From Candidatus Levyibacteriota bacterium (GTDB lineage Bacteria > Patescibacteriota > Microgenomatia > Levybacterales > GWA1-39-11), in NCBI GenBank assembly GCA_039738415.1, contig JBCLLY010000005.1, positions 4,306 to 68,305 of the forward strand: 64,000 bases of DNA. The letters run 5' to 3'. The position numbers and the translations under genes are program-made. The first letter of the stretch is position 1. Every line of letters begins with the position of its first letter. The notes under the pieces are model-generated. The model did not search any database and had not been told where the DNA came from. It saw only the letters and a program-made list of their open reading frames with translations. Shown piece by piece: positions 643 to 60,774 of the stretch.

Positions 643-672
643 TTGACAAAGAGTTATCCACATTCCTATACT
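643..672 (+). promoter_or_regulatory. candidate sigma70-type dnaA promoter with embedded DnaA box
   Basis: TTGACA at 643-648, an 18-nt spacer, then TATACT at 667-672. A perfect DnaA box TTATCCACA (654-662) lies in the spacer. The element ends 52 nt upstream of the dnaA ATG. Confidence 0.4.
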
Positions 673-723
673 GCATGTTACCAGTCTTTTGAAAGTATTT
701 ATATCCTGCCGCACATCTTACCT

Positions 724-2064
724 ATGGACGATATTTGGAAGTTAGTTTTAGCAGAAATTGAAGTACAGGTCAGTAGGCCTCAATTTGTAACCTTTTTTAA
801 TGGAACGACGCTCGTTTCTCTTGAAAACTCTGTTGCCACAATTGCGTCTCCAACATATATGACCTCAGACTATATAGCAAAAAGATACTATTCTCTTATC
901 AAACAGTCCCTTGACAAACAAACGGGGGGCAATAACAGCCTTGTTTTTGTAACCAAAAAAATTGTTAAACCTACGAGCGAAGAGGTGGGTCCGCTTTTTA
1001 CCCGACCGCCACAGCCGACAATTGCAAAAAACCGCCCCCCAAGAATCCGAATGGATTATACTTTTGACAACCTAGCGGTTTCTGAAAGCAACCAGCTCGC
1101 CTACACTGCGGCCTCCGCTGTCGCGCTTGAACCGGGTGTTAAATATAATCCCCTATATATGTACGGAACGGTTGGGGTAGGAAAAACTCATTTAATGCAC
1201 GCGATAGCAAATGACCTATTCGAGAAAAATAACAAGGCAAAAATCCTCTATATGACAACGGAGGAGTTTACAAATGATATCGTTGAGTCTATTCGAGACA
1301 AGCAAACAACACAAATGCGTAAAAAGTTTAGGAATGTTGACCTTCTTCTTCTTGACGACATTCAGTTTTTAAGCGGGAAGGAAAAGGTACAGGAAGAGCT
1401 TTTTCACACCTTCAATACGCTCATAGACAGCAAAAAGCAGGTCGTATTCTCCTCAGACCGCCCTCCCCACGAAATAAAAAAAATTGAGGCAAGACTCGCG
1501 TCAAGGCTTGAGGGGGGGCTTAAAATAGACATCCAGGCACCGGATTTTGAGCTAAGAACCGCAATATTACTTATCAAGAGTCAAAAGTTCAACATACCCC
1601 TTCCTGTAGAACTTGCAAAAAGGGCGGCGGAAAAAATTGAGGACACGAGAGCACTTGAGGGATTTATACTAAAATTATCAGGACTTCTTGCCAATTCCTC
1701 AACGAACGAGATAACTGAGGAGATTGTTGACAAGGCAATAGGAATCAGGCGTGAGGAGAGAAAAAGAGTGCATCCTGACGATGTAGTAAATGTGATTTGT
1801 GAGTATTTTGATGTCAGACCCACCCAGCTAAAAGGGGAGAGGAGAACATCAAGCCTCGTACACTCGCGCCAAATATGTATGTACCTGCTTAAAGAAGAGC
1901 TCCATCTTACATATGTAGATATTGGAAATATTTTAGGTGGGCGCGATCACACAACAATAATGCACGGTGTGGATAAGATTAGGAATTTATACTCAAAGGG
2001 GAATGGAGTAAATGAGGAAATCATGTATATAAAAAACCAATTAAAGGAGAGTTATGCACAATGA
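724..2064 (+). CDS. dnaA: chromosomal replication initiator DnaA
   Basis: Walker A GTVGVGKTHL, Walker B LLLLDDIQF, and the C-terminal DNA-binding signature GGRDHTTIMHGVDKI. The track ORF starts at TTG 643; I trimmed it to ATG 724 (MDDIWKLVLAEIE...) because the upstream part overlaps the promoter and DnaA box. Confidence 0.93.
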   Translation: MDDIWKLVLAEIEVQVSRPQFVTFFNGTTLVSLENSVATIASPTYMTSDYIAKRYYSLIKQSLDKQTGGNNSLVFVTKKIVKPTSEEVGPLFTRPPQPTIAKNRPPRIRMDYTFDNLAVSESNQLAYTAASAVALEPGVKYNPLYMYGTVGVGKTHLMHAIANDLFEKNNKAKILYMTTEEFTNDIVESIRDKQTTQMRKKFRNVDLLLLDDIQFLSGKEKVQEELFHTFNTLIDSKKQVVFSSDRPPHEIKKIEARLASRLEGGLKIDIQAPDFELRTAILLIKSQKFNIPLPVELAKRAAEKIEDTRALEGFILKLSGLLANSSTNEITEEIVDKAIGIRREERKRVHPDDVVNVICEYFDVRPTQLKGERRTSSLVHSRQICMYLLKEELHLTYVDIGNILGGRDHTTIMHGVDKIRNLYSKGNGVNEEIMYIKNQLKESYAQ

Positions 2065-2091: not shown

Positions 2092-2165
2092 CTTTCCACA
2101 AAAATATCCACTACTTATACACAGTTTTTCACGCACGCCTGATTGCCTTTATCCACTTATCCACC
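2092..2165. promoter_or_regulatory. DnaA-box cluster in the dnaA-dnaN spacer (candidate oriC core)
   Basis: Five 9-mers resembling TTATCCACA lie within 74 nt: cTtTCCACA 2092-2100, aTATCCACt 2104-2112, TTATaCACA 2115-2123, TTATCCACt 2149-2157 and TTATCCACc 2157-2165. An AT-rich stretch follows at 2166-2193. Confidence 0.55.
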
Positions 2166-2193
2166 TATACTACTACTAGTACTATTAATATAT

Positions 2194-3288
2194 ATGGAAG
2201 TTGAACTTTTAACGGAGAACATTGAGAAACACCTATCTACATTATTGAGAATGCTTCCAAGCAATTCTCAGGTTCCTATACTTTCAAACATTCTCTTAAC
2301 TGCTGACAAGAGCGGTTTTTATTTAAAGGCAACAGATCTTGAAATAGGAATAATAATAAAAATTCCCGCAAAAATAAACAAAGAGGGGAGTATTACGATT
2401 CCCGGAAAACAATTTATTGAAACAATTACAAACCTTCCCAAAGACAAGCTGCTAATAGTGGAGGAAAAAGAGAAGCTTAGGATATCTATAAGGGAGAGTA
2501 ATATTACATTCCAAACTTTAAGCTCTCTAGAATTTCCAGACCTGATGAAAAGAAAAGGGGAAAAAATAATTTCCCTTAAAAAAACCGCCTTTGATAAGCT
2601 CTTTGACCATCTCTGCTTCTCCGCATCAACGGACGATATCAGGCCCCACCTGACGGGCGTATACATAGCGAAAATTGAAGGACTGGTAGAGCTTGTTACA
2701 ACAGATGGGTATAGGCTGACTGTTAAGTCTATTGAAATGGATACCATCTCTAAAATTGAAGAGCCGATAATCGTATCCGTTCAGGTAATTAACGAGGCAA
2801 TGAATATAAAGGCAGAAGAGATTACAATGAGCATAAATCTAGATGAAAATCAGGTAGTTTTTGAAGGCGGGGATGTGGTTTTGGTAGGAAGGTTAATAAA
2901 TGGTAAGTTCCCTCCGTACGAAAAGGTTATTCCCAGTGCTTCAATAACAAAGGTTACCATTGATAGGGATGAGTTTATACAAAGCGTCCGCCTGGCAAGC
3001 GTTTTTGCAAAAGACCAATCAAACATCGTTAACGTTAATATAGAAGGTGGAGTATTAAAATTAAGTGCAAAGACTTCGGGAGTGGGAGAGGGGGAATTTG
3101 TGGTAGATGTGCAAAAAGAAGGGGAGGATAATAATATAGCCTTTAACATAAGATACCTTGCCGACGTGTTGAAAAATTTTGAGGGGGAAAGGGTTGTTAT
3201 GGAGATGAGCGGACCCCTGCAGCCTGCATTATTTAAAGACAACAAGAATTCCTTCAAACACGTAATAATGCCGATAAAAACGGATTAG
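2194..3288 (+). CDS. dnaN: DNA polymerase III beta sliding clamp
   Basis: Located directly after dnaA. The approximately 365-aa length and N-terminal pattern (PILSNILLTADKSGFYLKATDLEIG...IPGKQFIETITNLP) are typical of DnaN. The start was trimmed from 2143 to ATG 2194 because the upstream codons are the DnaA boxes. Confidence 0.88.
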   Translation: MEVELLTENIEKHLSTLLRMLPSNSQVPILSNILLTADKSGFYLKATDLEIGIIIKIPAKINKEGSITIPGKQFIETITNLPKDKLLIVEEKEKLRISIRESNITFQTLSSLEFPDLMKRKGEKIISLKKTAFDKLFDHLCFSASTDDIRPHLTGVYIAKIEGLVELVTTDGYRLTVKSIEMDTISKIEEPIIVSVQVINEAMNIKAEEITMSINLDENQVVFEGGDVVLVGRLINGKFPPYEKVIPSASITKVTIDRDEFIQSVRLASVFAKDQSNIVNVNIEGGVLKLSAKTSGVGEGEFVVDVQKEGEDNNIAFNIRYLADVLKNFEGERVVMEMSGPLQPALFKDNKNSFKHVIMPIKTD

Positions 3289-6205: not shown

Positions 6206-8465
6206 TGTTTAGTGTTGGTGTGTTGTTTTGGGTAGGCTGAGTGTGGGTTGGGTTAGGCGCTTGTGCCCGAGAAGAACCCTGAGCTATTTGTGGGCTTTGT
6301 GTAGTCGTTGTGTATTGTTTAAAGTGGTTTTCTGATTGGTGACTTTGTGTTTGAAAGTATCCCTGTTTCGGTTCTATGTTAACCTCTGTTCCTTGAGCGA
6401 CAGCTGAAGCATTGGTTACAGGAGGAGTTTGTTGAACTGGTTCCTGTGGTTGTTCAAATGTCTGACCATTTGTTTTAGGGACAAGCGTTTGTGCATTCTG
6501 ATTTTGCACAAATGTTTCACCGGGTTCCGGAGGTACTGCTTCCGGCTCTATAGGTGGGGTTGGTGGTGGAGGATTGCTCGCGTCTTCTACTTGTTGATCT
6601 AAAATATCCTGAGGTTTTGAGGTTATTAAATCATATTCAAATTGAGAGGAAATAAATTGTGCGGTTACATGATTTTGACCCGCAAACAAAAGTCCTTCCC
6701 CGACTTGCGCAGTTAGCAGATACTGCTTTTCTCCACCTGACAGGTTAAGTGTCTTTGCAAGAGTTTCTACCTCAGAGGCTCCCTGCTTTAAAAGAATTTG
6801 GATAGATGAGTTAGAAAGAATTGATTTTCCATAATCACTTGCCAAAAAGTCTTCAATATCTTGAGTAAGAGTTGTAACTCCCAGATAATATTTTCGCGCG
6901 CGCTTGGCAATTCCCTGCAAAAATGCAGCAGAGTCAGGGTAGCGCATCAGATACCACGCCTCATCAACCACCAGAATTCTTTTCTTAAGCTTTGTTCTAA
7001 CTCTGCTCCAAACGAAGTCGAGAATTACGTGCATAGCAATTGGGCGCAGCACATCTTCAAGCTGTTTAAGTGAAAATACTGTCATTTTGTTTTGCACGTC
7101 ATAGTTGGTTTGTTGATTAAAAAGACCGGAAAATCCTCCTTTTACATACTTTTCAAGTCTAAATGCAAGCTCCTTTGCCTCAGGCTCTTCCATGTTTAGA
7201 AGTGTTTTGTATAAATCTTCAAGAATAGGGGGCTCGTTTTTATAGGTTGCGGGATTTGGAGTAATGCCTTTTTGTTTATAGGCAAGAACAAGAGACCTAT
7301 CCATAATCGCCTCTTGTGTTGGAGTCATTTCCCCAAGCATTGTTTTTAAAAGTCCATGAACGGATAAAATCTTAAGACTTAATTGATTTTCAGACATATC
7401 GTCGGGTAGGAGTGCGAATGGGTTAATTTTTACCTCCGAACTCTTGGAAAAAGTAATATATTCTCCACCCAGAGACTGACAAAGCGCTCTGTATTCATCC
7501 TCAGGATCTATAATTATTATTTCAGTGCCAAATATATACTGGCGCATTAACTCAAGTTTTACCAGAAAAGATTTTCCCGAACCGCTCTTTCCAAAAACAA
7601 CCTCATTTGCATTTTCCAGCGAGAACCTATCAACAATAACTAAAGAGTTGTTCAACGTATTTATTCCGTACAAAATTCCATTTGGGTGAGAAATTTCATA
7701 GCTTGTGAATGGAAAAGTTGAGGCAACGGATGTAGTATCCATGTTGCGAGTTATCATAAGCTTGTCGTCTCCTTTTGGAAGAGTAGTTTTAAACCCGTCT
7801 TCCATTTGCAGCGTTGCCGGTTTTACAACCAAAAGATCTGAAGCAAGAAGAGAAGTGAGCTCTTTTGTTTTTAGGTTTAACTCCTCCAGGTTGTCTGCGG
7901 AAATTGTTATGTATAGTCCGAATTGGAAGAACCGCTCAAGTCCCCGGGCAAGTTCTTCGCGGAGCGAAATAGCGTCTTCAAGTGATGCTTGAACTTTAGG
8001 GTCGGCAACAATACCATTTTGAGCATCAGACTGTAAAGTTGCCTCCATTTCTGCAATTTTACGCCTCAAATTAGACAAAACGTCTTTACTCTCAACAGGG
8101 TAAAGAAACATAGAAATATTCATCGTTTCCTTGTAGTCAATAAGTATAGATAGCCAATTAGGAGATACTTGTCGGGGGTAATCGACTACAAAAAATGTTC
8201 TGTAATATTTGTCTCCAACCCTTATGTGGCGGAAATCGACCTCAACTGATGAGGGTGCGATAATATCAACAATTGACACAGACCCTTTTCTCAACTCTTC
8301 CAGATGTTGATCGGGGTGAGGTTTTTTTGCATTCTTTTTCTCGTTTTTGCCTTTTGGGGGTTGGGGAGTTTGTGCTTGCACAGGAGAACCAACTACTGGT
8401 GTACCAGGAGCGAGTGCCGGTGCCTGCTGTGTATTTTGTTGTTTTTTATTTCCTAGTCCAAACAT
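6198..8465 (-). CDS. virB4: VirB4/TrbE-family type IV secretion ATPase with low-complexity N- and C-terminal extensions
   Basis: Walker A FGKSGSGKSF, Walker B ILVVDEAWYLM, and DPEDEY. Size and domain order are typical of VirB4. About 60 aa at the N-terminus and about 140 aa at the C-terminus are P/Q/T-rich tails. Confidence 0.85.
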   Translation of the reverse strand: MFGLGNKKQQNTQQAPALAPGTPVVGSPVQAQTPQPPKGKNEKKNAKKPHPDQHLEELRKGSVSIVDIIAPSSVEVDFRHIRVGDKYYRTFFVVDYPRQVSPNWLSILIDYKETMNISMFLYPVESKDVLSNLRRKIAEMEATLQSDAQNGIVADPKVQASLEDAISLREELARGLERFFQFGLYITISADNLEELNLKTKELTSLLASDLLVVKPATLQMEDGFKTTLPKGDDKLMITRNMDTTSVASTFPFTSYEISHPNGILYGINTLNNSLVIVDRFSLENANEVVFGKSGSGKSFLVKLELMRQYIFGTEIIIIDPEDEYRALCQSLGGEYITFSKSSEVKINPFALLPDDMSENQLSLKILSVHGLLKTMLGEMTPTQEAIMDRSLVLAYKQKGITPNPATYKNEPPILEDLYKTLLNMEEPEAKELAFRLEKYVKGGFSGLFNQQTNYDVQNKMTVFSLKQLEDVLRPIAMHVILDFVWSRVRTKLKKRILVVDEAWYLMRYPDSAAFLQGIAKRARKYYLGVTTLTQDIEDFLASDYGKSILSNSSIQILLKQGASEVETLAKTLNLSGGEKQYLLTAQVGEGLLFAGQNHVTAQFISSQFEYDLITSKPQDILDQQVEDASNPPPPTPPIEPEAVPPEPGETFVQNQNAQTLVPKTNGQTFEQPQEPVQQTPPVTNASAVAQGTEVNIEPKQGYFQTQSHQSENHFKQYTTTTQSPQIAQGSSRAQAPNPTHTQPTQNNTPTLNNG

Positions 8466-8469
8466 AAAA

Positions 8470-8559
8470 TTATATTGCTGAATTGTTATAGTGTTAAACT
8501 GTTAAATTGTAATAATGATTTTTTTAGCAATTTAATGTTTTATCAATTTGACAGTTTAT
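8470..8559. repeat. phased 8-nt repeat arrays in inverted arrangement (intergenic)
   Basis: Five in-phase units at 8470-8509: ttatattg, ctgaattg, ttatagtg, ttaaactg, ttaaattg. These read CAATTTAA-like on the gene strand and lie 4 nt from the virB4 ATG. Units of the opposite orientation occupy 8528-8559 (caatttaa, tgttttat, caatttga, cagtttat) and overlap the stop of the upstream gene. Confidence 0.8.
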
Positions 8560-9197
8560 AGTATTACATTCTTAATATCCCTAGACTCAAAATTCAAATT
8601 TATAACGTCATCGTTAAGAAGCTCGTAAAATACTTTAATTAACTCTTCGTGCGTAAGTCTTCTGGGTGCAAGCCCCATGCGTTCAACTTGGGACATAATC
8701 ACACTTGACTTTGACAGGAGTGCTCCCTTTGCTTGGTCTGCAAAACTTTGCTTTGAGACAGTTTTATTAGCGTTTTGTGCAACATTTGTTGCGCCTCCTT
8801 CTAGATAATTATAAGGAATAATTATATAGATTTTTTTGTCTAAAAGTCCCTCGCCCTTAACTAGTTCTTGTATAAATTCTTTATAATATAAAAGATGTTC
8901 TTTCGTTTGTTGTTGTTGAGTTGTGGTGATTCTCTTGTCTATTGTGTCAATATAGGCATCCATATCTATTTTTTTAGAAACAATAAGTATTTGTATCGCG
9001 AAAGAAAGAGAATTTAGAAGAGACATATATCCATAAACCCTTGAATTCTGCTCGTCAGATGACAGTAAAAAGAAATTAACAGAAGATACTTCAAGCATCA
9101 TACACGCTCTTTTATTTTTAAATAAAACTACATCGTCAACGATATCAACTATTTCAGTAAAACCTTGTGTTGTTGATTTTATTTCCTTTTTTGCCAT
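8556..9197 (-). CDS. hypothetical protein, T4SS-locus associated
   Basis: 213-aa soluble ORF between the prgI-like and virB4-like genes. No motif recognised with confidence. Confidence 0.5.
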   Translation of the reverse strand: MAKKEIKSTTQGFTEIVDIVDDVVLFKNKRACMMLEVSSVNFFLLSSDEQNSRVYGYMSLLNSLSFAIQILIVSKKIDMDAYIDTIDKRITTTQQQQTKEHLLYYKEFIQELVKGEGLLDKKIYIIIPYNYLEGGATNVAQNANKTVSKQSFADQAKGALLSKSSVIMSQVERMGLAPRRLTHEELIKVFYELLNDDVINLNFESRDIKNVIL

Positions 9198-9202
9198 ATA
9201 GA

Positions 9203-9289
9203 TTAAATTGATAAATTGTTAAACTGCCAAAGCGTTAAATTGTTTTTCAGAGTTTAGCAATTTGACAATTCAGCAGTTTGGCAATTACG
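9203..9289. repeat. phased 8-nt repeat arrays in inverted arrangement (intergenic)
   Basis: Units at 9203-9242 (ttaaattg, ataaattg, ttaaactg, ccaaagcg, ttaaattg) lie 5 nt from the ATG at 9197. Opposite-orientation units at 9258-9289 (caatttga, caattcag, cagtttgg, caattacg) overlap the stop at 9285. Confidence 0.8.
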
Positions 9290-10367
9290 CGCTTTGCGTA
9301 TTTCCAAATAATTCTTGTCTTAGTTTTTCTCTTTGATCTGTGGAAATAATTTCTAAAGGCTGGAATATTTCGTTATTCATCTCTATATCAATTGGACTAA
9401 ATTCGTGAATATGCCTAGTGTCCTCAAGCAATATTTGATAATTTCCAGCAGAAAGAGTAGTTGCTGATGAGAATTGACCAAGAGCGTTTGTTTTAAAAGC
9501 TCTAACAGGGTTACCGCCAGAGTCAATTACTTCAACTATTATATTTGGCAAAACTTTTCCGCGCGCGTCTTTTACAATCCCCAAAACTACATTTGGGGTG
9601 TCGGGAATTTGTGGAAAACCACTGGCTAGTTGATTTTCCGGCGCAACAGAAACACCGGGCATTGACGGTTCTTGAATTTGAGGTTTAGGCGCTGGAGCTA
9701 GTACGGGTACAATGTTTTGTGTTAGAACGGTCGCGCTTTGTGGGATAGGCAAAGGCGCTTGTTCTACAGGTTCGGGTGGGGGAGTTACCTGAATGGGCTC
9801 CTGCGGCAAGTCTACAGGAAGTCTTACATAAGTGCCTTGTGGAGTTTGAGGTGTATCAATTGCCACCATACCCGTAACGGGAATGTTTGACTCGCTAAAT
9901 AGTCCATTTATACCCTTAAGCTGTTCGCGCTCATTCTCATCCACTTTATATGGGACATTTTTTCTGACGAGCTGATTTAGTAGAAGCTCGCGTCGGTTGT
10001 CCTTTTGTGCTACTTGGTTTATGGGGGTAGCTTTGTGTATTGTTTGTGGAGTAAAGTAATCGAAAAGTAATGCTTCGGCACCTTTTTTATGGAACATAAA
10101 GCGGTTTTCGGCAGGCAATGCTTTTAAAAAATTCATGAGCATTACGTCCATTGGTCTTCCCTCAATCGGTAAGAAAGCAAGTCCCGCGCCAATTGAACCA
10201 ATGAGTATAATAGCGGGCCACTTCAAGAGAAATGATATGGGCATTATGAAAAAAACTCCACATAAAGCCCCAGCCGCCAGGATATAAAGGAACTGTTTTA
10301 CTGTGACCGAGCCAATGAGCCTAAATTTAAATCCGGTAACATCTTGCGGTATAGGATGATTTTCCAT
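9285..10367 (-). CDS. PrgI/VirB3-like membrane protein fused to a Pro-rich linker and CarboxypepD_reg-like beta domain
   Basis: The N-terminus (IPQDVTGFKFRLIGSVTVKQFLYILAAGAL plus two TM helices) resembles the PrgI family of Gram-positive T4SS. The C-terminus (GIVKDARGKVLPNIIVEVIDSGGNPVRAFKTNALGQFSS) resembles a carboxypeptidase-regulatory-like fold. Confidence 0.6.
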   Translation of the reverse strand: MENHPIPQDVTGFKFRLIGSVTVKQFLYILAAGALCGVFFIMPISFLLKWPAIILIGSIGAGLAFLPIEGRPMDVMLMNFLKALPAENRFMFHKKGAEALLFDYFTPQTIHKATPINQVAQKDNRRELLLNQLVRKNVPYKVDENEREQLKGINGLFSESNIPVTGMVAIDTPQTPQGTYVRLPVDLPQEPIQVTPPPEPVEQAPLPIPQSATVLTQNIVPVLAPAPKPQIQEPSMPGVSVAPENQLASGFPQIPDTPNVVLGIVKDARGKVLPNIIVEVIDSGGNPVRAFKTNALGQFSSATTLSAGNYQILLEDTRHIHEFSPIDIEMNNEIFQPLEIISTDQREKLRQELFGNTQSA

Positions 10368-10372
10368 ATGTG

Positions 10373-10412
10373 TTAAATTGATAAACTGTTAAATTGATAA
10401 ACTGTTAAATTG
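10373..10412. repeat. phased 8-nt repeat array (16-mer x 2.5)
   Basis: Units ttaaattg, ataaactg, ttaaattg, ataaactg, ttaaattg begin 5 nt from the ATG at 10367. Confidence 0.85.
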
Positions 10413-10431
10413 TCGTTTTTAGGATTTGGCT

Positions 10432-10806
10432 TCATTCTTTTAATCTTTCATTTGTGAATTTTATAAGTTGATTTAATTCTTTTGGCAAAACACCCAAAGA
10501 CTCGTTGAGCATCTTGTATTCACTCTCTGAAATTAAATCACGAGCTTTAGCTTTTTCTGGCCAATCTATCGATTCAAGCAATGAGCCGAAGCTTATCTTG
10601 TAAAACCTTACCTTATCCTTTTTTGAATATCTACCAAACCCTTCGGCGATATTTGCTGAAATGGAATCAATTGCAGTAACAAATTGTGAACCTACTGTCT
10701 TTTTTTCAAACCATTTCCATTTACAAACTATATTCCAAACACTGTTTGATAATCTAAACGCTTCTTTATAGCTACTAATGTTATCTAACGTTAAATAAGT
10801 TCTCAT
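10432..10806 (-). CDS. four-helix-bundle protein (23S rRNA intervening-sequence protein family)
   Basis: The motif SISANIAEGFGRYSKKDKVRFYKISFGSLLE is characteristic of this family. Length is 124 aa. Confidence 0.75.
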   Translation of the reverse strand: MRTYLTLDNISSYKEAFRLSNSVWNIVCKWKWFEKKTVGSQFVTAIDSISANIAEGFGRYSKKDKVRFYKISFGSLLESIDWPEKAKARDLISESEYKMLNESLGVLPKELNQLIKFTNERLKE

Positions 10807-10810
10807 TTAG

Positions 10811-10834
10811 CAATTTGGCAATATAACAATTTAG
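10811..10834. repeat. 8-nt repeat units (caatttgg, caatataa, caatttag)
   Basis: Three phased units start 4 nt from the ATG at 10806. Here they are in the opposite orientation relative to the gene. Confidence 0.6.
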
Positions 10835-11087
10835 CTGAGTTGTTCTACATATCAGCTTATCCCGTGAAAATATTCAAATCAAGAGTATCAGAGTAGTGCA
10901 AACTATACGATATTTTGAGGCTAGTGTGAAAAGAGGCTAGGTTGTTCTGACGAAATCAACGACTACACTTCTACCATTTACTGAAAAACCTCGAACCTTC
11001 CAGCCTGGAGTGAGCAGACTTTCTAGAAGATTTCTAAGCTCTGTATTTAGGTTAGCGAGCCTAGATTAAATATCTATAATAGCGTTT

Positions 11088-17979: not shown

Positions 17980-19746
17980 TTAAAATCCTCCGGGTGGAAT
18001 TTCACCTGCAGACCCTGTACCATCATCAACCCTATCCACCCCAGTATTTGTTTTTGCGGGTACGTCAAATTCCGGAATTCTTAAAATATCTCCAGCAATA
18101 ACCTGAAGTATGACGAATGAGAAGATAATGAATAAAAGTCCGATTATGGCAGCTGTTAATATTTCGCGGGCGTGTTTAATCCTCTCAGGATCCCCGCGGG
18201 AAATCATATAATAGTAGCCCCCGTAGATAATAAGACCGAGTGCTGCAATGAACGCAATAGATAAGACATATGAAAAAATGTTGTTGATGAAATCAAGAGG
18301 TTTAAGTCCTATCTTTCCTATCGCAGTATCAAGGGTTTTGCAGTCAAGGGGATCGTCAGGTAGTCTTTTGCCTTCTCCTCCGATAATACAGGGTAGGCGT
18401 GTACTTCTATATCCAAGCGCCTCTAATAAATCAGGTATTTTGCCAATATTCTCGCCATTTGGATCATAAATTCCGTTACTGCAGTAACTTTTTGATAAAT
18501 CTGATGTAACACTGCAAGCCATACGAAAATAGACATAACCTCCTTGGCAAATAGGCCCCTCATCAGCACCAACATCGCTATAAAATTCTCTCACCTGCTC
18601 CTTAACCTCAATAATATAAGGCTGATCAGACTCTTGAAGGGTAATATTTGTTGGCAAAGTTACCGTTCCCATATGAGCGTTTTTGTCTCTACTAAGAGTG
18701 ACGCACGCTTCACCATTACTTGGAATAAATTTAACATAATCTTTAGGATCCCACCGACCTGCTGCAATACCTTTGCCCTTTATGACAATCTGATAATTAT
18801 TTCTAAGTTTCTCCTGTTCTTTCGCCTTGTTACTGTTGAGATCGCTTTGACCGTGTCCTCTCAAATTAACAGGTAATTGATTAACAGGTAATTGACCCTG
18901 AAGCTTTCTGAAGAAGCTCATTATTATTTTCCCCTGTTCATTATATATTGTAGAAACGTCTACTTTTGCCCTAGCTTCAATTTTTATAACTAATTTATCA
19001 CCAGGGATTACTGGTATAAGCCCGTTTGGTCCCTTACCCGGGAGTATTTTTCCACCTTTTTCTTTACTCACGGTAATAACAGGGGCACCGTAGTTTATAT
19101 AAAATCCTGCGATATCGACTAATGAGTAAAGAGGATTATCCTTTCCAATCTTTTCGTAAAGCGTTAGTACGTATATTTTTCCCGGGTGGAAATAGTCGCG
19201 TCCGTTTAGGCACCCTACTTTGCCCTTACCTTTTTCACTTGGTGCGTGGTCTTTCCAATAGTTTCCGTTTTGCCCCTTCCAGTGTTCATGACTACCCTCA
19301 GTTCCCACCGCCCTTAATTTAGACGAACTATCCGCGCATACTTCTATGCTTCCCCCCACGAGTGTAAAGCGCATTATTGTCGGCTCGTCAGCCTGTTTAT
19401 TATCGAGACCATTCCTAGCGACACTTCGTGCAGTAGGGTCCCCGTCAAGTATTCCCTTTCGGATATCCTTGTCATTTATACACAAATCACGCTCTAAACA
19501 CACATAAATTTCATTTTCCCCTATGCTATTCATGGTTTCCGGTGAAAATGTTACCTTTACAGTAGTTTTATAATCATCTATAAATTGCGGTTCGGGGACA
19601 GTAGTAAATGTTTGAGCAAAGGAAGTACCTGCAAATAAGAAAAAGAAAAAGAAAAGAAAAGAGGTAATTGTTACAATTGTTTTTAACATATCTCTATCAT
19701 ACACAGAAAAGAACTCAAAAATCAAAGAAGTTAAATTGTTATACAT
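17980..19746 (-). CDS. large secreted domain fused to a C-terminal pilin-like module
   Basis: Signal or TM segment at the N-terminus, an approximately 470-aa Cys-containing extracellular region, then YGGYYYMISRGDPERIKHAREILTAAIIGLLFIIFSF, which is the same module as the three downstream pilin-like ORFs. Confidence 0.6.
   Translation of the reverse strand: MYNNLTSLIFEFFSVYDRDMLKTIVTITSFLFFFFFLFAGTSFAQTFTTVPEPQFIDDYKTTVKVTFSPETMNSIGENEIYVCLERDLCINDKDIRKGILDGDPTARSVARNGLDNKQADEPTIMRFTLVGGSIEVCADSSSKLRAVGTEGSHEHWKGQNGNYWKDHAPSEKGKGKVGCLNGRDYFHPGKIYVLTLYEKIGKDNPLYSLVDIAGFYINYGAPVITVSKEKGGKILPGKGPNGLIPVIPGDKLVIKIEARAKVDVSTIYNEQGKIIMSFFRKLQGQLPVNQLPVNLRGHGQSDLNSNKAKEQEKLRNNYQIVIKGKGIAAGRWDPKDYVKFIPSNGEACVTLSRDKNAHMGTVTLPTNITLQESDQPYIIEVKEQVREFYSDVGADEGPICQGGYVYFRMACSVTSDLSKSYCSNGIYDPNGENIGKIPDLLEALGYRSTRLPCIIGGEGKRLPDDPLDCKTLDTAIGKIGLKPLDFINNIFSYVLSIAFIAALGLIIYGGYYYMISRGDPERIKHAREILTAAIIGLLFIIFSFVILQVIAGDILRIPEFDVPAKTNTGVDRVDDGTGSAGEIPPGGF
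18866..18895. repeat. perfect 15-nt tandem duplication inside the CDS
   Basis: ttaacaggtaattga occurs twice in tandem, encoding QLPVNQLPVN in the 588-aa protein. Confidence 0.9.
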
Positions 19747-19768
19747 TAAATTGCTCTATTGTTATGCC

Positions 19769-19889
19769 CGAGTTTCGAACTTGTCATTCCGGACTTTGAT
19801 CCGGAATCTATTTTGGATCCCGCATCAAGTGCGGGATGACAAAGGTGTTTGATAAAGTATTCCTATCTTTTAATGGAGTGCGAAACTCG
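19769..19889 (+). repeat. structured palindromic element, copy A (outer stem plus two inner hairpins, GTCAT...GATGAC)
   Basis: The outer stem pairs cgagtttcg (19769-19777) with cgaaactcg (19881-19889). Inner hairpins are attccgga/tccggaat (19786-19807) and atcccgca/tgcgggat (19817-19837). Confidence 0.75.
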
Positions 19890-19907
19890 TGTTATACTGA
19901 CTTTCAA

Positions 19908-19939
19908 CAATTTGACGATTTAACGTTTTATCAATTTAA
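19908..19939. repeat. 8-nt repeat units (caatttga, cgatttaa, cgttttat, caatttaa)
   Basis: Four phased units overlap the stop of the detached wHTH fragment. A near-identical string occurs at 21332-21355. Confidence 0.7.
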
Positions 19940-20077
19940 TTATTGCTGAATTTATATCCTGTGCCTTTTATTGTTTGCAATAACTTTGGATTTGAAGGGT
20001 CAACTTCAATTTTTTTTCTGAGTCTGTAAAGTATTTGGTCGAGTGCTTGGTCAGTTACTCCCTCCTGAGTTTTTTTG
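19936..20077 (-). pseudogene. detached 3' segment of the AAA-wHTH regulator gene, in a different frame
   Basis: This frame reads ...QEGVTDQALDQILYRLRKKIEVDPSNPKLLQTIKGTGYKFSNN*. That is the missing recognition helix and wing of an OmpR/PhoB-type winged helix. The frames meet at an A7 run on the coding strand (T7 at 20070-20076). Confidence 0.65.
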
Positions 20078-21275: not shown

Positions 21276-21355
21276 TTAAATTAATAAATTGTCAAACTGT
21301 TATATTGCTACATTATAATACTGATTTTTAACAATTTGGCGATTTATCAATTTAA
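21276..21355. repeat. 8-nt repeat arrays in the divergent intergenic region
   Basis: Units at 21276-21307 (ttaaatta, ataaattg, tcaaactg, ttatattg) lie 4 nt from the ATG at 21271. Opposite-orientation units occupy 21332-21355 (caatttgg, cgatttat, caatttaa). Confidence 0.75.
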
Positions 21356-27068: not shown

Positions 27069-27132
27069 AGCAAGACCTAATCTTTAGTATGACAATTAAT
27101 ATAGGTAAAAATCAAGTTTTGTTACTAAAATA

Positions 27133-27264
27133 GTAACCGTTCAGGATTTGACAAAACTATATCAAAATTGTCATGCTGAACTTGTTTCAGCATCTCTTTA
27201 GCTCAAGAAATAGATCCCGAAACGAGTTCGGGATGACGATGTGTCAGCAAGTCTGAACTGTTAC
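27133..27264 (+). repeat. structured palindromic element, copy B
   Basis: The outer stem pairs gtaaccgttcag (27133-27144) with ctgaactgttac (27253-27264), with one mismatch. Inner hairpins are atgctgaa/ttcagcat (27173-27193) and atcccgaa/ttcgggat (27214-27234). Same GTCAT...GATGAC frame as copy A. Confidence 0.75.
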
Positions 27265-27310
27265 TAATCTTATAACGGGTTGACTCCGATTAAATCGGGG
27301 TAAATCAGAG

Positions 27311-28693: not shown

Positions 28694-28731
28694 AATCTAA
28701 ATTACTAAATGGCTAAATGGCTTAATAACAA

Positions 28732-28779
28732 CAATTTATCAATATAACAATATAACAATATAACAGTTTAACAATATAA
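28732..28779 (+). repeat. six phased 8-nt units directly upstream of nrdJ
   Basis: caatttat, caatataa, caatataa, caatataa, cagtttaa, caatataa, then cttt and ATG 28784. Confidence 0.85.
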
Positions 28780-32434: not shown

Positions 32435-32525
32435 TAGTTAATTAAGGTAATTACGGTGTAAATCCGTAGCTGTGCCGCAACTGTAATCCGCCGTCGAGGT
32501 GGGAAGTCAGAAAACTAATTAACTA
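32435..32525 (+). promoter_or_regulatory. cobalamin riboswitch aptamer (compact form)
   Basis: A 10-bp P1 stem pairs tagttaatta (32435-32444) with taattaacta (32516-32525). The core GGTGtaAAtCCgtagCtGtgCCGCaACtGTAA and a B12-box-like GAAGTCAGAAAAC match the conserved cobalamin riboswitch elements. Confidence 0.65.
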
Positions 32526-32641: not shown

Positions 32642-33196
32642 ATGGCAATATATACTAAAAAAGGAGACAAGGGAAAAACTTCTTTAGGGAGTGGAGTCCG
32701 CGTATGGAAGGACTCTAGGCGCGTTGAGAGTTATGGAACGGTAGACGAGCTAAATGCTCTACTTGGGGTAATTGAGGCAGAATTAAGTTTAACCAATAAA
32801 AAATACGCAAGGTATCTTTCTGAGATTGTTATAACAGTTCAAAACGACCTTTTCTGCATAGGCTCGTATCTTTCAAATCCTGCTAACTCTTCGCTTGTCA
32901 CACATTTATCTAAAAATACTTCCGAATTTGAGCAAAAAATTGACGAAATGACGCAAAACCTGCCGGAGCTTTCTAACTTTATACTTCCCGGAGGAGGAAA
33001 AATTGGAGCAAATTTACAGCTTGCGCGCTCTGTTAGTAGACGGGCAGAGCGAAAGATAGTAACCCTTATTAAAAAAGAGAAAGTGAATAGTGACGTTACG
33101 CAGTACGTTAACCGCCTATCTGACTTATTTTTTACAATGAGCAGGTTTGCAAATTATTCTGAAAAGAAGAAAGAGATTATTTGGAAGAAAAGATAA
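32642..33196 (+). CDS. ATP:cob(I)alamin adenosyltransferase, PduO type
   Basis: N-terminal IYTKKGDKGKTSLGSG.RV.KDSRRVESYGTVDELNALLGV is characteristic of the PduO/MMAB family. Length is 184 aa. Confidence 0.85.
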   Translation: MAIYTKKGDKGKTSLGSGVRVWKDSRRVESYGTVDELNALLGVIEAELSLTNKKYARYLSEIVITVQNDLFCIGSYLSNPANSSLVTHLSKNTSEFEQKIDEMTQNLPELSNFILPGGGKIGANLQLARSVSRRAERKIVTLIKKEKVNSDVTQYVNRLSDLFFTMSRFANYSEKKKEIIWKKR

Positions 33197-36035: not shown

Positions 36036-36488
36036 TTAGATTAACTCTTTGAGTTCGCGTTCTTGGACGCGCTCAATAGTGGCTCTTTTTGAGTCTTTTC
36101 TTTTTTCGTATTCCTTTTTACCTTTAGAAAGCGCAATCTCCAGTTTGAAGTTATTTTTACTTATAAACATTTTTATAGGAACTAAGGTGAAGTTTCCTGT
36201 TTCAAGCTTGCTTTTAAGCGCCTGAATTTCCTTTTTGTGAAGAAGAAGCTTTCTGCTCCTATCCTCTTGATAATTTTGTGTGCGGGAGAATTTATACGGA
36301 AATATTTTTGCATTAATTAACATCGCTTCACGGTTAACTATTTTTACATAGGCAGAATTAAGGTCGACGTGGCCTTGTCTGGCGGCTTTTACCTCCGAGC
36401 CAAGCAGGACGATGCCTGCCGTTATTTTTTCAACAATATTAAAGTTTCTTGGTGCAGTTTTATTAAATATTTTTACTTTAGATTCCAT
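36036..36488 (-). CDS. smpB: SsrA-binding protein SmpB
   Basis: Contains GIVLLGSEVKAARQG, RSRKLLLHKKEI, TLVPIKMF and LSKGKKEYEKR, which match conserved SmpB blocks. Confidence 0.9.
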   Translation of the reverse strand: MESKVKIFNKTAPRNFNIVEKITAGIVLLGSEVKAARQGHVDLNSAYVKIVNREAMLINAKIFPYKFSRTQNYQEDRSRKLLLHKKEIQALKSKLETGNFTLVPIKMFISKNNFKLEIALSKGKKEYEKRKDSKRATIERVQERELKELI

Positions 36489-38693: not shown

Positions 38694-39371
38694 TTAGTTT
38701 TTTCTTAGCATATCTCCTATTATTCTTGCAATATTTGCGGGCTGGGGTGCTTTGTCAAATTGAATATTTTGTTCGACACCAGCAGTTTGAATAAATACTT
38801 CTCCAAAATTAAACAGCGACGGGATAAGCCCTATTTGTTGATATTTTACGTCTTGAATTAGATTAATCCGGGTCTCAGAAACATCCTTAAGCAATATTCC
38901 GTGAATATCGATATCCTTAATTCTTTTGTTGGTAACAATTCCAATATGAAAGTACCATAAAGTAAATTTCATAAGCAAAAATCCAAAGACAACAAGATAA
39001 TAAAATAAAATAGTTATAAGAGTTTGTATGGGAGTAAAGGCGTGAATAGGAAGCGCATTAGTTACAAGCGGAAAAAGAAAGGGAGGTAGGAGTGCGAAAA
39101 AAGCACCAGATAAAATCCATGGAAGGTTAACAACAAAGCGCCTTCTAATTATAAGTATTATTTCCTCATCCGCCTCTTGGTCTAAGAACTTAATTCTTTT
39201 TGGATAATAATCAAAGGATGAATAAAAATGTGGGTTTGATTTATTAACGACCTTTTTTATTTGGGGTAAGGGATTTTCATTTTTTATACTCTCCTCCATG
39301 TCAGAAATAGAGCTTTTAGGCTCAGGATTACTATTTAGCTCAAATTCTCCAGAAAGAATATCTTCGGGCAT
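38694..39371 (-). CDS. membrane protein with bacterial PH-like (YdbS/YdbT-type) domain
   Basis: Two TM helices followed by GIVTNKRIKDIDIHGILLKDVSETRINLIQDV, a pattern typical of membrane-flanked bPH domains. Confidence 0.45.
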   Translation of the reverse strand: MPEDILSGEFELNSNPEPKSSISDMEESIKNENPLPQIKKVVNKSNPHFYSSFDYYPKRIKFLDQEADEEIILIIRRRFVVNLPWILSGAFFALLPPFLFPLVTNALPIHAFTPIQTLITILFYYLVVFGFLLMKFTLWYFHIGIVTNKRIKDIDIHGILLKDVSETRINLIQDVKYQQIGLIPSLFNFGEVFIQTAGVEQNIQFDKAPQPANIARIIGDMLRKN

Positions 39372-41142: not shown

Positions 41143-41175
41143 TTATAACAGGATGATAAAATCTTTAGTGGGTAG

Positions 41176-41247
41176 TGGGCATGCTTGGAATTGGACCAAG
41201 GACATCCACTTTATAAGAGTGGCGCTCTACCCCTGAGCTACATGCCC
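41176..41247 (-). tRNA. tRNA-Ile, anticodon UAU
   Basis: A hand-folded 72-nt cloverleaf. Acceptor GGGCATG/CATGCCC plus A. D arm GCTC-AGGGGTA-GAGC. Anticodon arm CCACT-CTTATAA-AGTGG. T arm CTTGG-TCCAATT-CCAAG. No encoded CCA. Confidence 0.8.
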
Positions 41248-60066: not shown

Positions 60067-60774
60067 TTATAAATATTTTGTATAAAGTTCTTTAATACTT
60101 TTTATTATTTTAATATTTTTTGGAAGAGATTTATACCCGTGTTTTTTATTATCAGTAAGCCAAAAAAATGTATTCTCAGGAAGTTTTTTTGAAAGGTAAA
60201 CTAACAGGTCCAAATCGTCATCAATATAGTGAGAAATACCCTTTTTTATAATCACCCTTTCTTTAAATATGTGGGGTTGAATATTGTTAAAATTAAAATG
60301 AATTCCGTTAAAGTCGTTTTTCATTTTATTTTTATCCAGCCAGCTGTTAGTTTTCTCCTTTAAAAAACCAAATCTGCTGGAAATTAGATAAAGCTCACAT
60401 TTTGTTTTTTTATTTATCTCTCTAAGAGATTTAATATTATTTTTTATGGGGGGGCGGAATATATAATTGTGGGAAATTATTCTTATTTTTTGCTCAAAAA
60501 GACCCGGAATTCTATACTTGAGTTTGAAATTATCAGCGCTTTTCTCTTTTTTTATTGCAAAGCTTCCTTTATAGAGAAAATCAATTAATTTGTCAGGAAT
60601 TATCGGCGGGTAACTAACGAAAACTTTATCAAAATCAAACCCAATGCGGAATGTAGAAGGATTATTTATAAGTGTTTTCGTATCATTCCGGACTCGATCC
60701 TGAATCTTTGCGGATCCTGAATCAAGTTCAGGATGACGGGGTGGGGAATAGTGAGATCTTCTTTTTATAGCCAT
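60067..60774 (-). CDS. hypothetical protein, HAD-like DxD start motif; N-terminus doubtful
   Basis: IGFDFDKVF resembles HAD motif I. The first approximately 30 codons (…HPELDSGSAKIQDRVRNDT) are translated from repeat copy C of the two-hairpin element, so the true start is probably downstream. Confidence 0.45.
   Translation of the reverse strand: MAIKRRSHYSPPRHPELDSGSAKIQDRVRNDTKTLINNPSTFRIGFDFDKVFVSYPPIIPDKLIDFLYKGSFAIKKEKSADNFKLKYRIPGLFEQKIRIISHNYIFRPPIKNNIKSLREINKKTKCELYLISSRFGFLKEKTNSWLDKNKMKNDFNGIHFNFNNIQPHIFKERVIIKKGISHYIDDDLDLLVYLSKKLPENTFFWLTDNKKHGYKSLPKNIKIIKSIKELYTKYL
60682..60737 (+). repeat. structured palindromic element, copy C (degenerate, no outer stem)
   Basis: atcattccggactcgatcctgaatc...ggatcctgaatcaagttcaggatgac. 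The second hairpin atcctgaa/ttcaggat is intact and the first is decayed. Confidence 0.65.

Follow-up and report, generated by a model that had tools for sequence, protein, structure and literature searches.

Inverted octamer arrays between genes of a Levyibacteriota genome: probable arms of IVS-type cassettes

Introduction

What are the arrays of tandem octamers that end a few nucleotides before several start codons in a genome of Candidatus Levyibacteriota, and why are the same units found, inverted, at the ends of the genes upstream? The arrays lie in a stretch of 64,000 nt (contig JBCLLY010000005.1, positions 4,306-68,305, forward strand), referred to below as the window. An initial annotation had offered three possibilities, namely leaders for translation without an SD, a tandem array of sites for a binding protein, and RNA hairpins between cistrons. 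A literature search for the exact octamer arrays gave no relevant report, and an Rfam gathering search of the window yielded a tmRNA, three tRNAs and an AdoCbl-II riboswitch only, with no known RNA family at the arrays. The explanation preferred here, which we judge probable rather than secure, is that the arrays are the arms of IVS-type selfish cassettes and of gene-less miniature derivatives of such cassettes, co-transcribed with the host genes.

Octamer arrays in the window

The unit takes the form CAAT[T/G/A][T/A]A[A/G], its 4-bp core being strongly conserved and its tail variable, and the five start codons reported to be preceded by in-phase octamers and a gap of 4-5 nt do carry them as described. 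Enrichment in the window was confirmed by a scan for three in-phase CARTWTAW units with up to three mismatches, which gave 17 matches against 0.09 +/- 0.35 expected from 100 dinucleotide-preserving shuffles, none of which reached that number, and Tandem Repeats Finder confined 8-nt arrays of the octamer kind to 8.4-28.8 kb of the window. The arrays noted in inverse orientation at the 3' ends of upstream genes are equally real, and the common architecture, (NNNNATTG)n, a short spacer and (CAATNNNN)n, faces inward in identical fashion at all six window sites.

The first site, on the minus strand, has a start-proximal arm of 5-6 units of the CAATNNNN type (8470-8517), in which caatttaa, cagtttaa, cactataa, caattcag and caatataa are followed by the 4 nt TTTT and the ATG of a virB4-like gene at 8465, and a distal arm of the NNNNATTG type in gene sense (8528-8559), the outermost unit of which holds the stop codon (8556-8558) of a 213-aa TraC-like gene. 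That gene is itself preceded on the minus strand by five units (9203-9242), ending in caatttat and caatttaa, then by the 5 nt TCTAT and its ATG at 9197, and the distal arm (9258-9289, minus strand) overlaps the stop codon of the PrgI-like gene at 9285-9287. The five units before the prgI-like ATG at 10367, which are separated from it by CACAT, belong to a sixth site that had been overlooked, with arrays at 10373-10412 and 10811-10842 around a 124-aa gene. A further overlooked array (19730-19766, minus strand) spans the ATG at 19746 of a 588-aa pilin-like gene; in the loop between this start-proximal array and its distal arm (19908-19939, minus strand) there is a 130-nt hairpin-rich insert (19766-19895, no strand assigned) with terminal inverted repeats CCCGAGTTTCG...CGAAACTCGTG, 94% identical in the relative L001. 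The statement that this distal arm lies over a stop codon holds only if the AAA-wHTH gene, which appears to be frameshifted at an A7 run, is corrected, and in L001 the AAA-wHTH reading frame is intact and terminates within the array. The AAA-wHTH gene starts (ATG 21271) 4 nt after a four-unit arm (21276-21307, minus strand) that ends in caatttat and taatttaa and is followed by ATCT; with its distal arm (21332-21355, minus strand) it sits between a -10-like TATAAT and the ATG, and a promoter scan found CTAACA-18-TATAAT (21396-21367) upstream of the pair. On the plus strand a diverged distal arm, CTAAATTA CTAAATGG CTAAATGG CTTAATAA (28697-28728), begins 3 nt past the nrdR stop, and a start-proximal arm of six units (28732-28779) is separated by the 4 nt CTTT from the nrdJ ATG at 28784.

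Five of the sites are gene-less and consist of an arm, a loop of 3-25 nt and a second arm, one of them carrying the 130-nt insert in its loop, and the loops of three have a TAAAAAWTCAGTAT-like motif in common. In this lineage the elements take up the entire spacer that separates a start codon from the stop codon, or -10 box, ahead of it; for this reason the upstream stop is overlapped by one arm, and only 4-5 nt remain between the other arm and the ATG.

A complete copy and its homologues

The element at 10373-10842 is complete in that a gene for a 124-aa four-helix-bundle protein (10432-10806, minus strand) lies between both arms. The protein belongs to PF05635 (23S_rRNA_IVP; 76.4 bits against a cutoff of 33.8) and TIGR02436 (83 bits against a cutoff of 24), and over 2200 homologues, about 60-70% identical, occur across phyla. 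The 5' arm (10811-10842, minus strand) reads CAACTCAG CTAAATTG TTATATTG CCAAATTG in gene sense, followed by CTAA and the ATG at 10806; the 3' arm (10373-10412, minus strand), (CAATTTAA CAGTTTAT)x2.5, has perfect 16-nt periodicity and ends 5 nt before the start of the PrgI-like gene. The arms pair across the ORF in MFE and centroid folds. A phmmer search gave no direct PDB match for the protein, and a profile search from it reached 2gsc and 2rld, both uncharacterised proteins. The element encodes this protein only, which has no known catalytic domain. Upstream there is a promoter-like site, TTCACA-17-TATAGT (10902-10930, minus strand), within a conserved block that relatives share whether or not they have the element, and if this is the operon promoter the element would lie in the 5' leader of prgI.

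The association of gene and arms was examined in 80 metagenomic loci encoding proteins 58-67% identical to the window PF05635 protein. At least three in-phase CAAT-core octamers were present in 67 of 76 upstream and 67 of 78 downstream flanks (about 88%), compared with 4 of 232 control windows, and in about half of these loci the downstream arm begins at the first base past the stop codon. The two arms of a locus resemble each other in their unit tails more than arms of different loci do (2.93 within loci against 2.58 between) and their mean duplex energy over 53 loci is -21.0 kcal/mol within loci against -16.8 kcal/mol between; neither value was reached in any of 5000 permutations. In 34 of 48 loci both neighbours run in the direction of the cassette, and arrays fill the spacers. 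Other PF05635 subfamilies have inverted arrays of 7-8-nt units with a sequence different from the CAAT-core octamers: (CCTACGS)n in L041, GACTAGN units in L208, where the locus lies between atpH and atpA, and inverted arrays in L209, between ruvX and greA. Flanking arrays were absent from a PF05635 gene on a Pseudanabaena plasmid. The idea that the units are selected to provide stop codons in all frames was discarded, since stops occur in 70% of units, against 69% after column shuffling of the arms, and all three frames are closed in only 34% of arms.

Distribution among relatives and across phyla

Comparison with related loci indicates how the arrays came to be where they are. The closest, L001 (VirB4 89% identical), has the same arrays as the window, with no difference seen in copy number, and L005 (79%) has some of them; its virB4 is preceded by heptamers, (NNNACTA)5, similar to the TAACTGA repeat family. 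In L002 and L004 (76-81%) the prgI, traC and virB4 genes abut with gaps of 1-6 nt and the PF05635 gene is absent, and at the AAA-wHTH start relatives have a -10 box, 6 nt and the ATG, with no insert. The lack of arrays in distant Levybacteria, in which orthologous genes abut, implies that the arrays are lineage-specific insertions. Judged from these sequence comparisons, the window arrays are recent insertions and not conserved regulatory sites of the adjacent genes. The element is probably mobile, mobility being read solely from its distribution; the elements come without a transposase or recombinase, and the three comparable sites showed no clear target-site duplication.

When the octamer array pattern was scanned across phyla, with one genome per species, arrays were also found in Bacteroidota, many Patescibacteria, Omnitrophota, Gammaproteobacteria and Ignavibacteria. 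An inward partner lay within 250 nt in 48 of 124 arrays, whereas outward partners (9 of 124) occurred at the background rate. In other Patescibacteria the loops have ATGCATA in common, and the sharing of loop motifs between copies argues for copied units over independent slippage. A jackhmmer search found no PF05635 gene adjoining an array in 120 genome loci derived from the pattern, which rules out that arrays always flank such a gene and indicates that gene-less arrays far outnumber complete elements; 88 gene-less inward pairs were counted in the fetched loci and the window together. The gene-less arrays may therefore have a life of their own. Phages were considered as carriers and rejected, as the arrays on viral contigs were simple AT-rich tandem repeats whose inward partners were no commoner than background (7 of 65).

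Folding, transcription and translation

The suggestion that the arrays form RNA hairpins between cistrons is borne out in part: there is pairing potential at most sites, but not at all. In the window, folding of the intergenic RNAs gave -21.6 kcal/mol (z -2.4) for 9203-9242 with 9258-9289, -18.3 kcal/mol (z -3.5) for 21276-21307 with 21332-21355 and a modest -10.1 kcal/mol (z -1.3) for 8528-8559 with 8470-8509 before virB4; the hairpin is absent at nrdJ, where the distal arm (28697-28728) pairs poorly with the proximal one. In other genomes, four of five gene-less pairs that were folded had z between -2.8 and -4.4. No selection on the stem specific to the RNA strand was detected (duplex -20.97 kcal/mol in sense, -20.83 in antisense, p = 0.80), nor was there an excess of G-U pairs on the sense strand (71 against 75).

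The proposal of SD-independent leaders can likewise be kept in part. The arrays do form the whole leader of genes that lack an SD, but starts without an SD are the rule here, and the contrast drawn with SD-bearing genes fails: when any GGAG, GAGG or AGGA within 20 nt of the start was accepted, only 5 of the 55 long ORFs of the window had an SD, which makes its absence the norm in this genome.

On the preferred explanation, each arm is a set of 3-6 tandem octamers with the CAAT core, the two arms being mutually inverted, with the 124-aa PF05635 gene between them in the complete copy. The elements are presumed to be transcribed within host mRNAs, and at two window sites both arms lie downstream of promoter-like sequences. 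By analogy with rRNA IVSs and Correia/ERIC elements, the arms might pair in these mRNAs into an A-U-rich stem that could be an RNase III substrate or could stabilise the message. The G-poor start-proximal arm would then act as a leader without an SD, and such a leader would be tolerated because most genes of the genome lack one.

Comparison with known systems

The nearest counterparts of the complete element are the IVSs of 23S rRNA in Leptospira and Coxiella burnetii (Warrier et al. 2016, PMC4990558), which likewise contain a PF05635 ORF within stem-forming inverted repeats. In Coxiella the S23p ORF lies within a 28-bp inverted-repeat stem that RNase III cleaves, and its ATG is preceded by GACAGAT heptamers in tandem (PMC4990558); these 7-nt direct repeats immediately before the ORF start are comparable to the window arms. 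Both kinds of element are patchily distributed and horizontally spread. The window has a PF05635/TIGR02436 ORF at one site, the other five being gene-less, and in predicted folds terminal inverted repeats form a stem around that ORF. The Salmonella and Campylobacter IVSs include short forms without an ORF. The differences are that IVSs occupy helix 25 or 45 of 23S rRNA, whereas all of the window sites lie between protein-coding genes in mRNAs and the window contains no rRNA, that the window arms, unlike those of rRNA IVSs, are explicit arrays of 3-6 CAAT-core octamers, and that RNase III cleavage was observed for the Coxiella stem while the window stem is predicted from folds.

The gene-less copies recall the Correia/NEMIS and ERIC elements, which are gene-less inverted-repeat elements of about 100 nt beside genes, co-transcribed with them and hairpin-forming; Correia elements are cut by RNase III and ERIC elements alter mRNA stability. 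As with such miniature elements, several similar gene-less inverted-repeat units are dispersed in the window (five pairs), and their presence is polymorphic, L002 and L004 being empty where the window, L001 and L005 are filled. Unlike the tandem short repeats of the window, the arms of Correia/NEMIS and ERIC elements are unique sequences, and each of these families is limited to one genus or family and has no four-helix-bundle gene.

Heptamer repeats of the TAACTGA type are found before start codons in Beggiatoaceae, Cyanobacteria and Bacteroidetes, and a role as translation leaders has been proposed for those of Beggiatoaceae (MacGregor 2015, PMC4679880). Like the window arrays they run in tandem in the forward direction and end a few nucleotides before the start with no SD between, as seen at five window sites, some reach into the end of the ORF upstream, and their phylogenetic distribution is scattered. 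They differ in having a 7-nt unit of unrelated sequence in place of the octamer and in almost never forming inverted pairs (1 of 170 sets), and no link to PF05635 has been reported. In Geobacter metallireducens, 53 pairs of tandem octa- or heptanucleotide sites were read as sites for IHF/HU-type proteins (Aklujkar 2009, PMC2700814). These have 3-5 tandem 7-8-nt repeats per strand at a variable distance, come in dozens of copies, some within operons (nifD/nifK, proB/proA), and are absent from the sister species, all as with the window arrays; unlike the latter, their units (GTTGCTYN, TCTCCGTS, MTYCTGA) are GC-rich, IS110-family insertions often lie between them, and no link to PF05635 was noted.

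Alternative explanations

An alternative that we consider unlikely, but the most serious, is that the arrays are dedicated translation leaders, in which a G-poor, unstructured (CAAUUUAA)n before the AUG recruits ribosomes without an SD, possibly through protein S1 or by re-initiation after the upstream stop. The array-led genes have no SD, the inserts lie before the ATG of T4SS and nrdJ genes that are likely to be important and must therefore permit translation, and the TAACTGA repeats show the same positional pattern. Across phyla, roughly 38 of 124 arrays lie in sense within -6 to +13 nt of an ORF start, and of 83 solo arrays 22 lie within 15 nt of a start codon in sense and one in antisense, a bias that a purely selfish model does not predict. 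On the other hand, 50 of the 55 window genes are without an SD and without arrays, the orthologues in L002 and L004 manage without them, and about two thirds of the gene-less pairs lie farther than 15 nt from any ORF start. A greater length of the start-proximal arm (5.0 units, against 4.3 in the distal arm) was not significant (p = 0.13), and neither the mirror arm nor the PF05635 association is explained.

It has also to be asked whether the arrays are DNA operators, whose 8-bp units would be bound cooperatively by a small protein, conceivably the PF05635 protein itself, that regulates genes or organises the chromosome; we rate this as quite improbable. The contiguous units with their conserved core and variable tail, the direct and inverted arrangement, and an arm complementarity without strand asymmetry, as expected of a feature at the DNA level, would all suit it. 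So would a weak tendency for similar PF05635 proteins to have similar units (Mantel r = 0.19, 9 of 2000 permutations) and the reading of the Geobacter pairs as putative sites of a global regulator. Contiguous 7-bp units in direct and inverted orientation are read unit by unit by the omega repressor of pSM19035 and by ParR/ParG, but their arrays lie over plasmid promoters or centromeres, with a known ribbon-helix-helix binder encoded nearby. No binding protein was identified for the window arrays; no ribbon-helix-helix gene was noticed beside arrays in the loci examined, and the PF05635 relatives in the PDB are uncharacterised. The AAA-wHTH protein had been put forward for binding tests. That it is the binder is unlikely, as its gene is kept in L002 and L004, which lack arrays at the sites examined (T4SS gene junctions among them), and as the same arrays occur in many phyla. 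The arrays moreover lie past the promoter, within operons between stop and start, and not over promoters, and an 8-bp period places successive sites on different faces of the helix.

Equating the start-proximal unit with a -10 element, so that the arrays would be promoters of leaderless or near-leaderless mRNAs, is very improbable. CAATWT or TAATTT does stand 6-7 nt before the ATG in the last unit at all five sites, TANNNT boxes in the window peak 6 nt before the ATG (6 genes), and TTAACA-17-TATAAT (an 11/12 match) lies inside the virB4 array. That TATAAT, though, ends just 3 nt before the ATG, CAATWT makes a poor -10 box with neither a -35 nor an extended -10, and the same arrays are found inside rRNA IVSs and, within operons, after the PF05635 stop. 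The region has 6 promoter-like matches against 8.1 by shuffle, not above expectation, and sigma-70-type promoters in the arrays were rejected on this ground. That the arrays are neutral, microsatellite-like slippage expansions of AT-rich intergenic DNA with no identity as elements is hardly credible, for although the degenerate pattern also picks up simple tandem repeats on viral and giant-virus contigs rich in AT, where partners are at background, slippage is largely refuted by the near-universal PF05635 association, the co-variation of the arms and the about six-fold enrichment of inward pairs, besides the loop motifs common to different copies and the unchanged copy number in L001.

Wider implications

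The preferred reading, of IVS-type cassettes and their miniature derivatives, can be extended into a bolder one that is doubtful at present: PF05635 genes and inverted arms of 7-8-nt tandem repeats might together constitute one large unrecognised class of mobile cassettes that takes in rRNA IVSs, the Geobacter pairs and perhaps the heptamers of cyanobacteria and Beggiatoa, in which a pentameric protein would read the units, as RNA or DNA, and direct spread or processing, while the arms would serve as portable SD-independent starts before essential genes. The origin of rRNA IVSs and S23p, the paired sites of Geobacter and the repeats at start codons have been reported separately and may have one explanation. 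The signature is recognisable, tandem units of 7-8 nt in inverted arrays, whether or not a PF05635 gene accompanies them, and makes genome-wide censuses possible. For genome evolution in the candidate phyla it would mean that parasitic elements can colonise operon junctions of 1-6 nt without destroying expression. Repeats of this kind also break assemblies, and they can mislead the calling of start codons and promoters during annotation.

Repeat arrays in the window

The tandem octamers of the window, whose G+C content is 37.7%, are inverted arms belonging to a family of PF05635-associated elements that has spread across phyla. The best matches to the VirB4 of the window come from Patescibacteria, Candidatus Levybacteria among them. 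The arrays listed in the initial annotation, described there as phased units next to ATG codons, were all borne out on reading the region, being in phase and 4-5 nt from the ATG. Three successive CARTWTAW units with at most 3 mismatches occurred 17 times, the expectation from dinucleotide-preserving shuffles being 0.09, and Tandem Repeats Finder confined 8-nt arrays of this kind to 8.4-28.8 kb of the window; the arrays are real and non-random. At 6 of 6 sites the layout on the + strand is [NNNNATTG]n, a short spacer and [CAATNNNN]n, and because this is its own reverse complement the strand of the genes makes no difference: in every case the start-adjacent (proximal) arm has the CAAT... reading in the downstream gene's direction, and the (distal) arm adjoining the upstream stop codon has the ...ATTG reading.

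One copy in the window is complete, enclosing a 124-aa gene between a distal arm at 10811-10842 and a proximal arm at 10373-10412 before the PrgI-like ATG, and five are gene-less. These lie between the TraC-like stop and the virB4-like ATG (distal 8528-8559, proximal 8470-8517), between the PrgI-like stop and the TraC-like ATG (9258-9289 and 9203-9242), before a pilin-like gene (19908-19939 and 19730-19766, the loop holding a 130-nt insert), in a divergent region before the AAA-wHTH ATG (21332-21355 and 21276-21307) and between the nrdR stop and the nrdJ ATG (28697-28728 and 28732-28779). An inverse array had also been claimed to overlie a stop codon at 19908-19939, which holds only once an apparent A7-run frameshift in the AAA-wHTH gene is corrected and not for the uncorrected sequence; in the related locus L001 the frame is intact and ends in the array. 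The apparent frameshift of this (Trans_reg_C) gene relative to L001 falls at 19990-20070, with the A7 run near 20060 and the window ORF stopping at 20051; with a -1/+1 shift in the run, about 38 more winged-helix residues follow and the frame closes at a TAA within the array at 19932-19939. It could be an assembly error or real.

The hairpin-rich 130-nt insert in the same loop (19766-19895) is 94% conserved in L001 and recurs as a partial copy at 60683-60737. It is bounded by the inverted repeats CCCGAGTTTCG...CGAAACTCGTG, contains GTCAT...GGGATGAC palindromes and appears to be a further miniature element, unrelated to the one in which it is nested. Another hairpin-rich stretch, at 27120-27275, is loosely similar to it, with no match by blastn.

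The PF05635 gene and gene-less copies

The 124-aa ORF (10432..10806) fits exactly between an ATTG-type and a CAAT-type arm and encodes a PF05635 "23S rRNA intervening sequence protein", named by NCBI a TIGR02436 four-helix-bundle protein. Its homologues number more than 2200, at about 60-70% identity; the named sources include Levybacteria, Andersenbacteria, WWE3 and Bacteroidales, and many homologues lie on very short contigs, as one would expect if the gene moves horizontally and its repeat flanks break assemblies. Scanning metagenomes with an alignment of the homologues gave 80 loci, and at least three in-phase CAAT-core octamers were present in 67 of 76 upstream and 67 of 78 downstream flanks, compared with 4 of 232 control windows taken on those contigs. 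At these loci the commonest distance from the end of the upstream arm to the PF05635 ATG is 2 nt, the downstream arm begins at the first base past the stop codon in about half, and the unit consensus is C-A-A-T-[T/G/A]-[T/A]-A-[A/G]. The unit tail varies among loci (CAATTTAA, CAATGAAA, CAATATAA and others), yet agrees between the two arms at any one locus. When arms were permuted among loci, none of 5000 permutations reached the tail similarity or the arm duplex energy seen within loci (for the energy, -21.0 kcal/mol within loci against -16.8 between them). Similarity of the proteins shows a weak correlation with that of the units (Mantel r = 0.19, 9/2000). The cassette was co-directional with both neighbours at 34 of 48 loci, the spacers being filled by arrays.

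Other PF05635 subfamilies keep the arm architecture with different units. A divergent gene on a Patescibacteria contig lies between inverted (CCTACGS)n heptamers, a Phycisphaerales copy between atpH and atpA has perfect inverted arms of GACTAGN heptamers, and a copy between ruvX and greA has GGGAC-type units. One copy, on a Pseudanabaena plasmid, is free of flanking arrays and makes an exception to the rule.

A scan of the exact array pattern against one genome per species yielded at least 120 stretches, the named matches listed coming from Bacteroidota, Moranii-, Peri-, Peregrini-, Magasanikii- and Staskawiczbacteria, Omnitrophota, Gammaproteobacteria, Ignavibacteria and others. None of the matches listed had a PF05635 ORF next to the array, so complete elements are far fewer than gene-less arrays. 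Of 124 arrays among the same matches, 48 had an inward partner no more than 250 nt away and 9 an outward one, the latter being the background rate. TAAAAAWTCAGTAT-like loop motifs are common to three window copies and an ATGCATA loop motif to several Patescibacteria among the matches listed; such shared loops point to copied units rather than independent slippage. Viral contigs served as a useful negative control, the pattern there matching mostly plain AT-rich tandem repeats without partners (7/65).

Filled and empty gene junctions

Judged by comparison of related Levybacteria loci, the arrays are lineage-specific insertions filling gene junctions, not conserved sites. L001 (VirB4 identity 89%) has nearly identical arrays and the PF05635 gene. 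L005/L006 (79%) carry the gene before prgI, both arms, with different units, before traC, and a solo 7-nt (NNNACTA)5 array before virB4. L002 and L004 (76-81%) are without the gene, and their prgI, traC and virB4 abut (TAA-AT-ATG, TAA-T-ATG). In L002 and L005 the AAA-wHTH ATG stands 6 nt after a -10 box; the window has TATAAT, AA, an 80-nt arm pair, ATCT and ATG. Compared in this way, the junctions indicate that elements take up the few nucleotides immediately preceding start codons, in contexts of three kinds: stop/start junction, 5' leader and promoter/ATG junction. The traC/virB4 junction holds different repeat families in related genomes: five solo heptamers (NNNACTA, e.g. ATAACTA) run up to the ATG at 9960-10000 of L005, in place of the octamer arm pair of the window.

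A promoter-like TTCACA-17-TATAGT (10930..10902) ahead of the complete element is kept in all relatives, and if it is the operon promoter the complete element is transcribed in the prgI leader. Elements are probably co-transcribed with host genes. The conserved non-coding block around the promoter-like site, upstream of the prgI operon (10845-10935, minus strand; L001 7520-7620, L002 8155-8225, L004 8070-8140, L005 7590-7665) is common to all relatives, combines this site with two TTTTCAC(A/G) copies about 75 nt apart, and may be where the T4SS operon is actually regulated, e.g. as an AAA-wHTH target.

Folding and translation

The earlier suggestion of RNA hairpins stood in part: stems are predicted at most arm pairs, with none at the nrdJ site. 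Window sites folded at -21.6 (z -2.4), -18.3 (z -3.5) and -10.1 kcal/mol (z -1.3), the arms of the complete element pair over its 375-nt ORF in the MFE structure as well as in the centroid, and gene-less pairs of other genomes gave z of -2.8 to -4.4 in 4 of 5 folded. The arms may form a stem that is a possible RNase III target, as in rRNA intervening sequences (IVSs) and Correia elements, whose stem is cut by that enzyme. No RNA-specific signature was found in arm complementarity, sense and antisense duplex energies being equal and G-U pairs numbering 71 vs 75, so the stem may be maintained at the DNA level or by how the arms are generated.

Partnerless arrays among the matches listed had an ATG-ORF start within 15 nt in 22 of 83 cases in the sense direction and 1 of 83 in antisense, a strong bias in direction across phyla, beyond what element geometry alone explains. 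This bias suggests that a CAAT-sense array is, at the least, tolerated as a leader and perhaps favourable as one, and the proximal arm could work as a leader without a Shine-Dalgarno (SD) motif. The contrast originally drawn with SD-bearing genes carries little weight, as only 5 of 55 long ORFs of the window have an SD-like motif and SD-less initiation is the norm. TANNNT boxes stand 5-8 nt before the ATG in 12 of 45 ORFs, about a quarter, vs 6 at control spacing; the few SDs and the -10 boxes near ATGs suggest frequent leaderless or SD-independent initiation in the host. Good -10 boxes occur 6-8 nt before the ATG of several ORFs, e.g. 38694..39371, 60067..60774 and 36036..36488. Selection of units for stop codons, a longer start-proximal than distal arm and promoter enrichment in arrays all failed on test.

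Comparison with published repeats

The Coxiella burnetii IVS is similar in joining an S23p ORF to a 28-bp, RNase III-cut inverted-repeat stem, with tandem GACAGAT heptamers of variable number directly before the ORF start (PMC4990558). Geobacter metallireducens likewise has paired tandem repeats, 24 + 21 + 8 pairs of 3-5 octa- or heptanucleotides on opposite strands, some inside operons (nifD/nifK, proB/proA), which were read as global-regulator sites (PMC2700814). Copies of ISGme8 (IS110 family) adjoin many of its octanucleotide pairs, reportedly at a fixed distance (PMC2700814, Table S4), which suggests that octanucleotide arm pairs are able to serve as IS110 insertion targets. TAACTGA heptamers also stand close before start codons, ending 1 to a few nt ahead of them in Beggiatoaceae, Cyanobacteria and Bacteroidetes (PMC4679880); the NNNACTA array of L005 resembles those of Beggiatoaceae. 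These cases fit the picture of repeat-armed PF05635 elements. Literature searches found no paper joining IVSs, Geobacter pairs and start-proximal heptamers, and no tandem CAATTTAA octamer copies in a relevant context. The element is best read as one of IVS type that lies outside rRNA, has arms of tandem octamers and has given rise to miniature derivatives.

Other features of the window

The ORFs 643..2064 and 2143..3288 are dnaA and dnaN by synteny with L001-L005, and between them lie tandem DnaA-box-like TTATCCAC units (2149-2168), so that the T4SS operon adjoins the likely replication origin. An AdoCbl-II riboswitch match at 32435-32525, barely at the gathering score (36.6 vs 36.5 bits), is downstream of the B12-dependent nrdJ and upstream of a 184-aa ORF at 32642. 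ARAGORN placed a tRNA-Ile at 41175-41247 whose anticodon, TAT, is unusual among bacteria, AUA being read by most of them via a lysidine-modified CAT.
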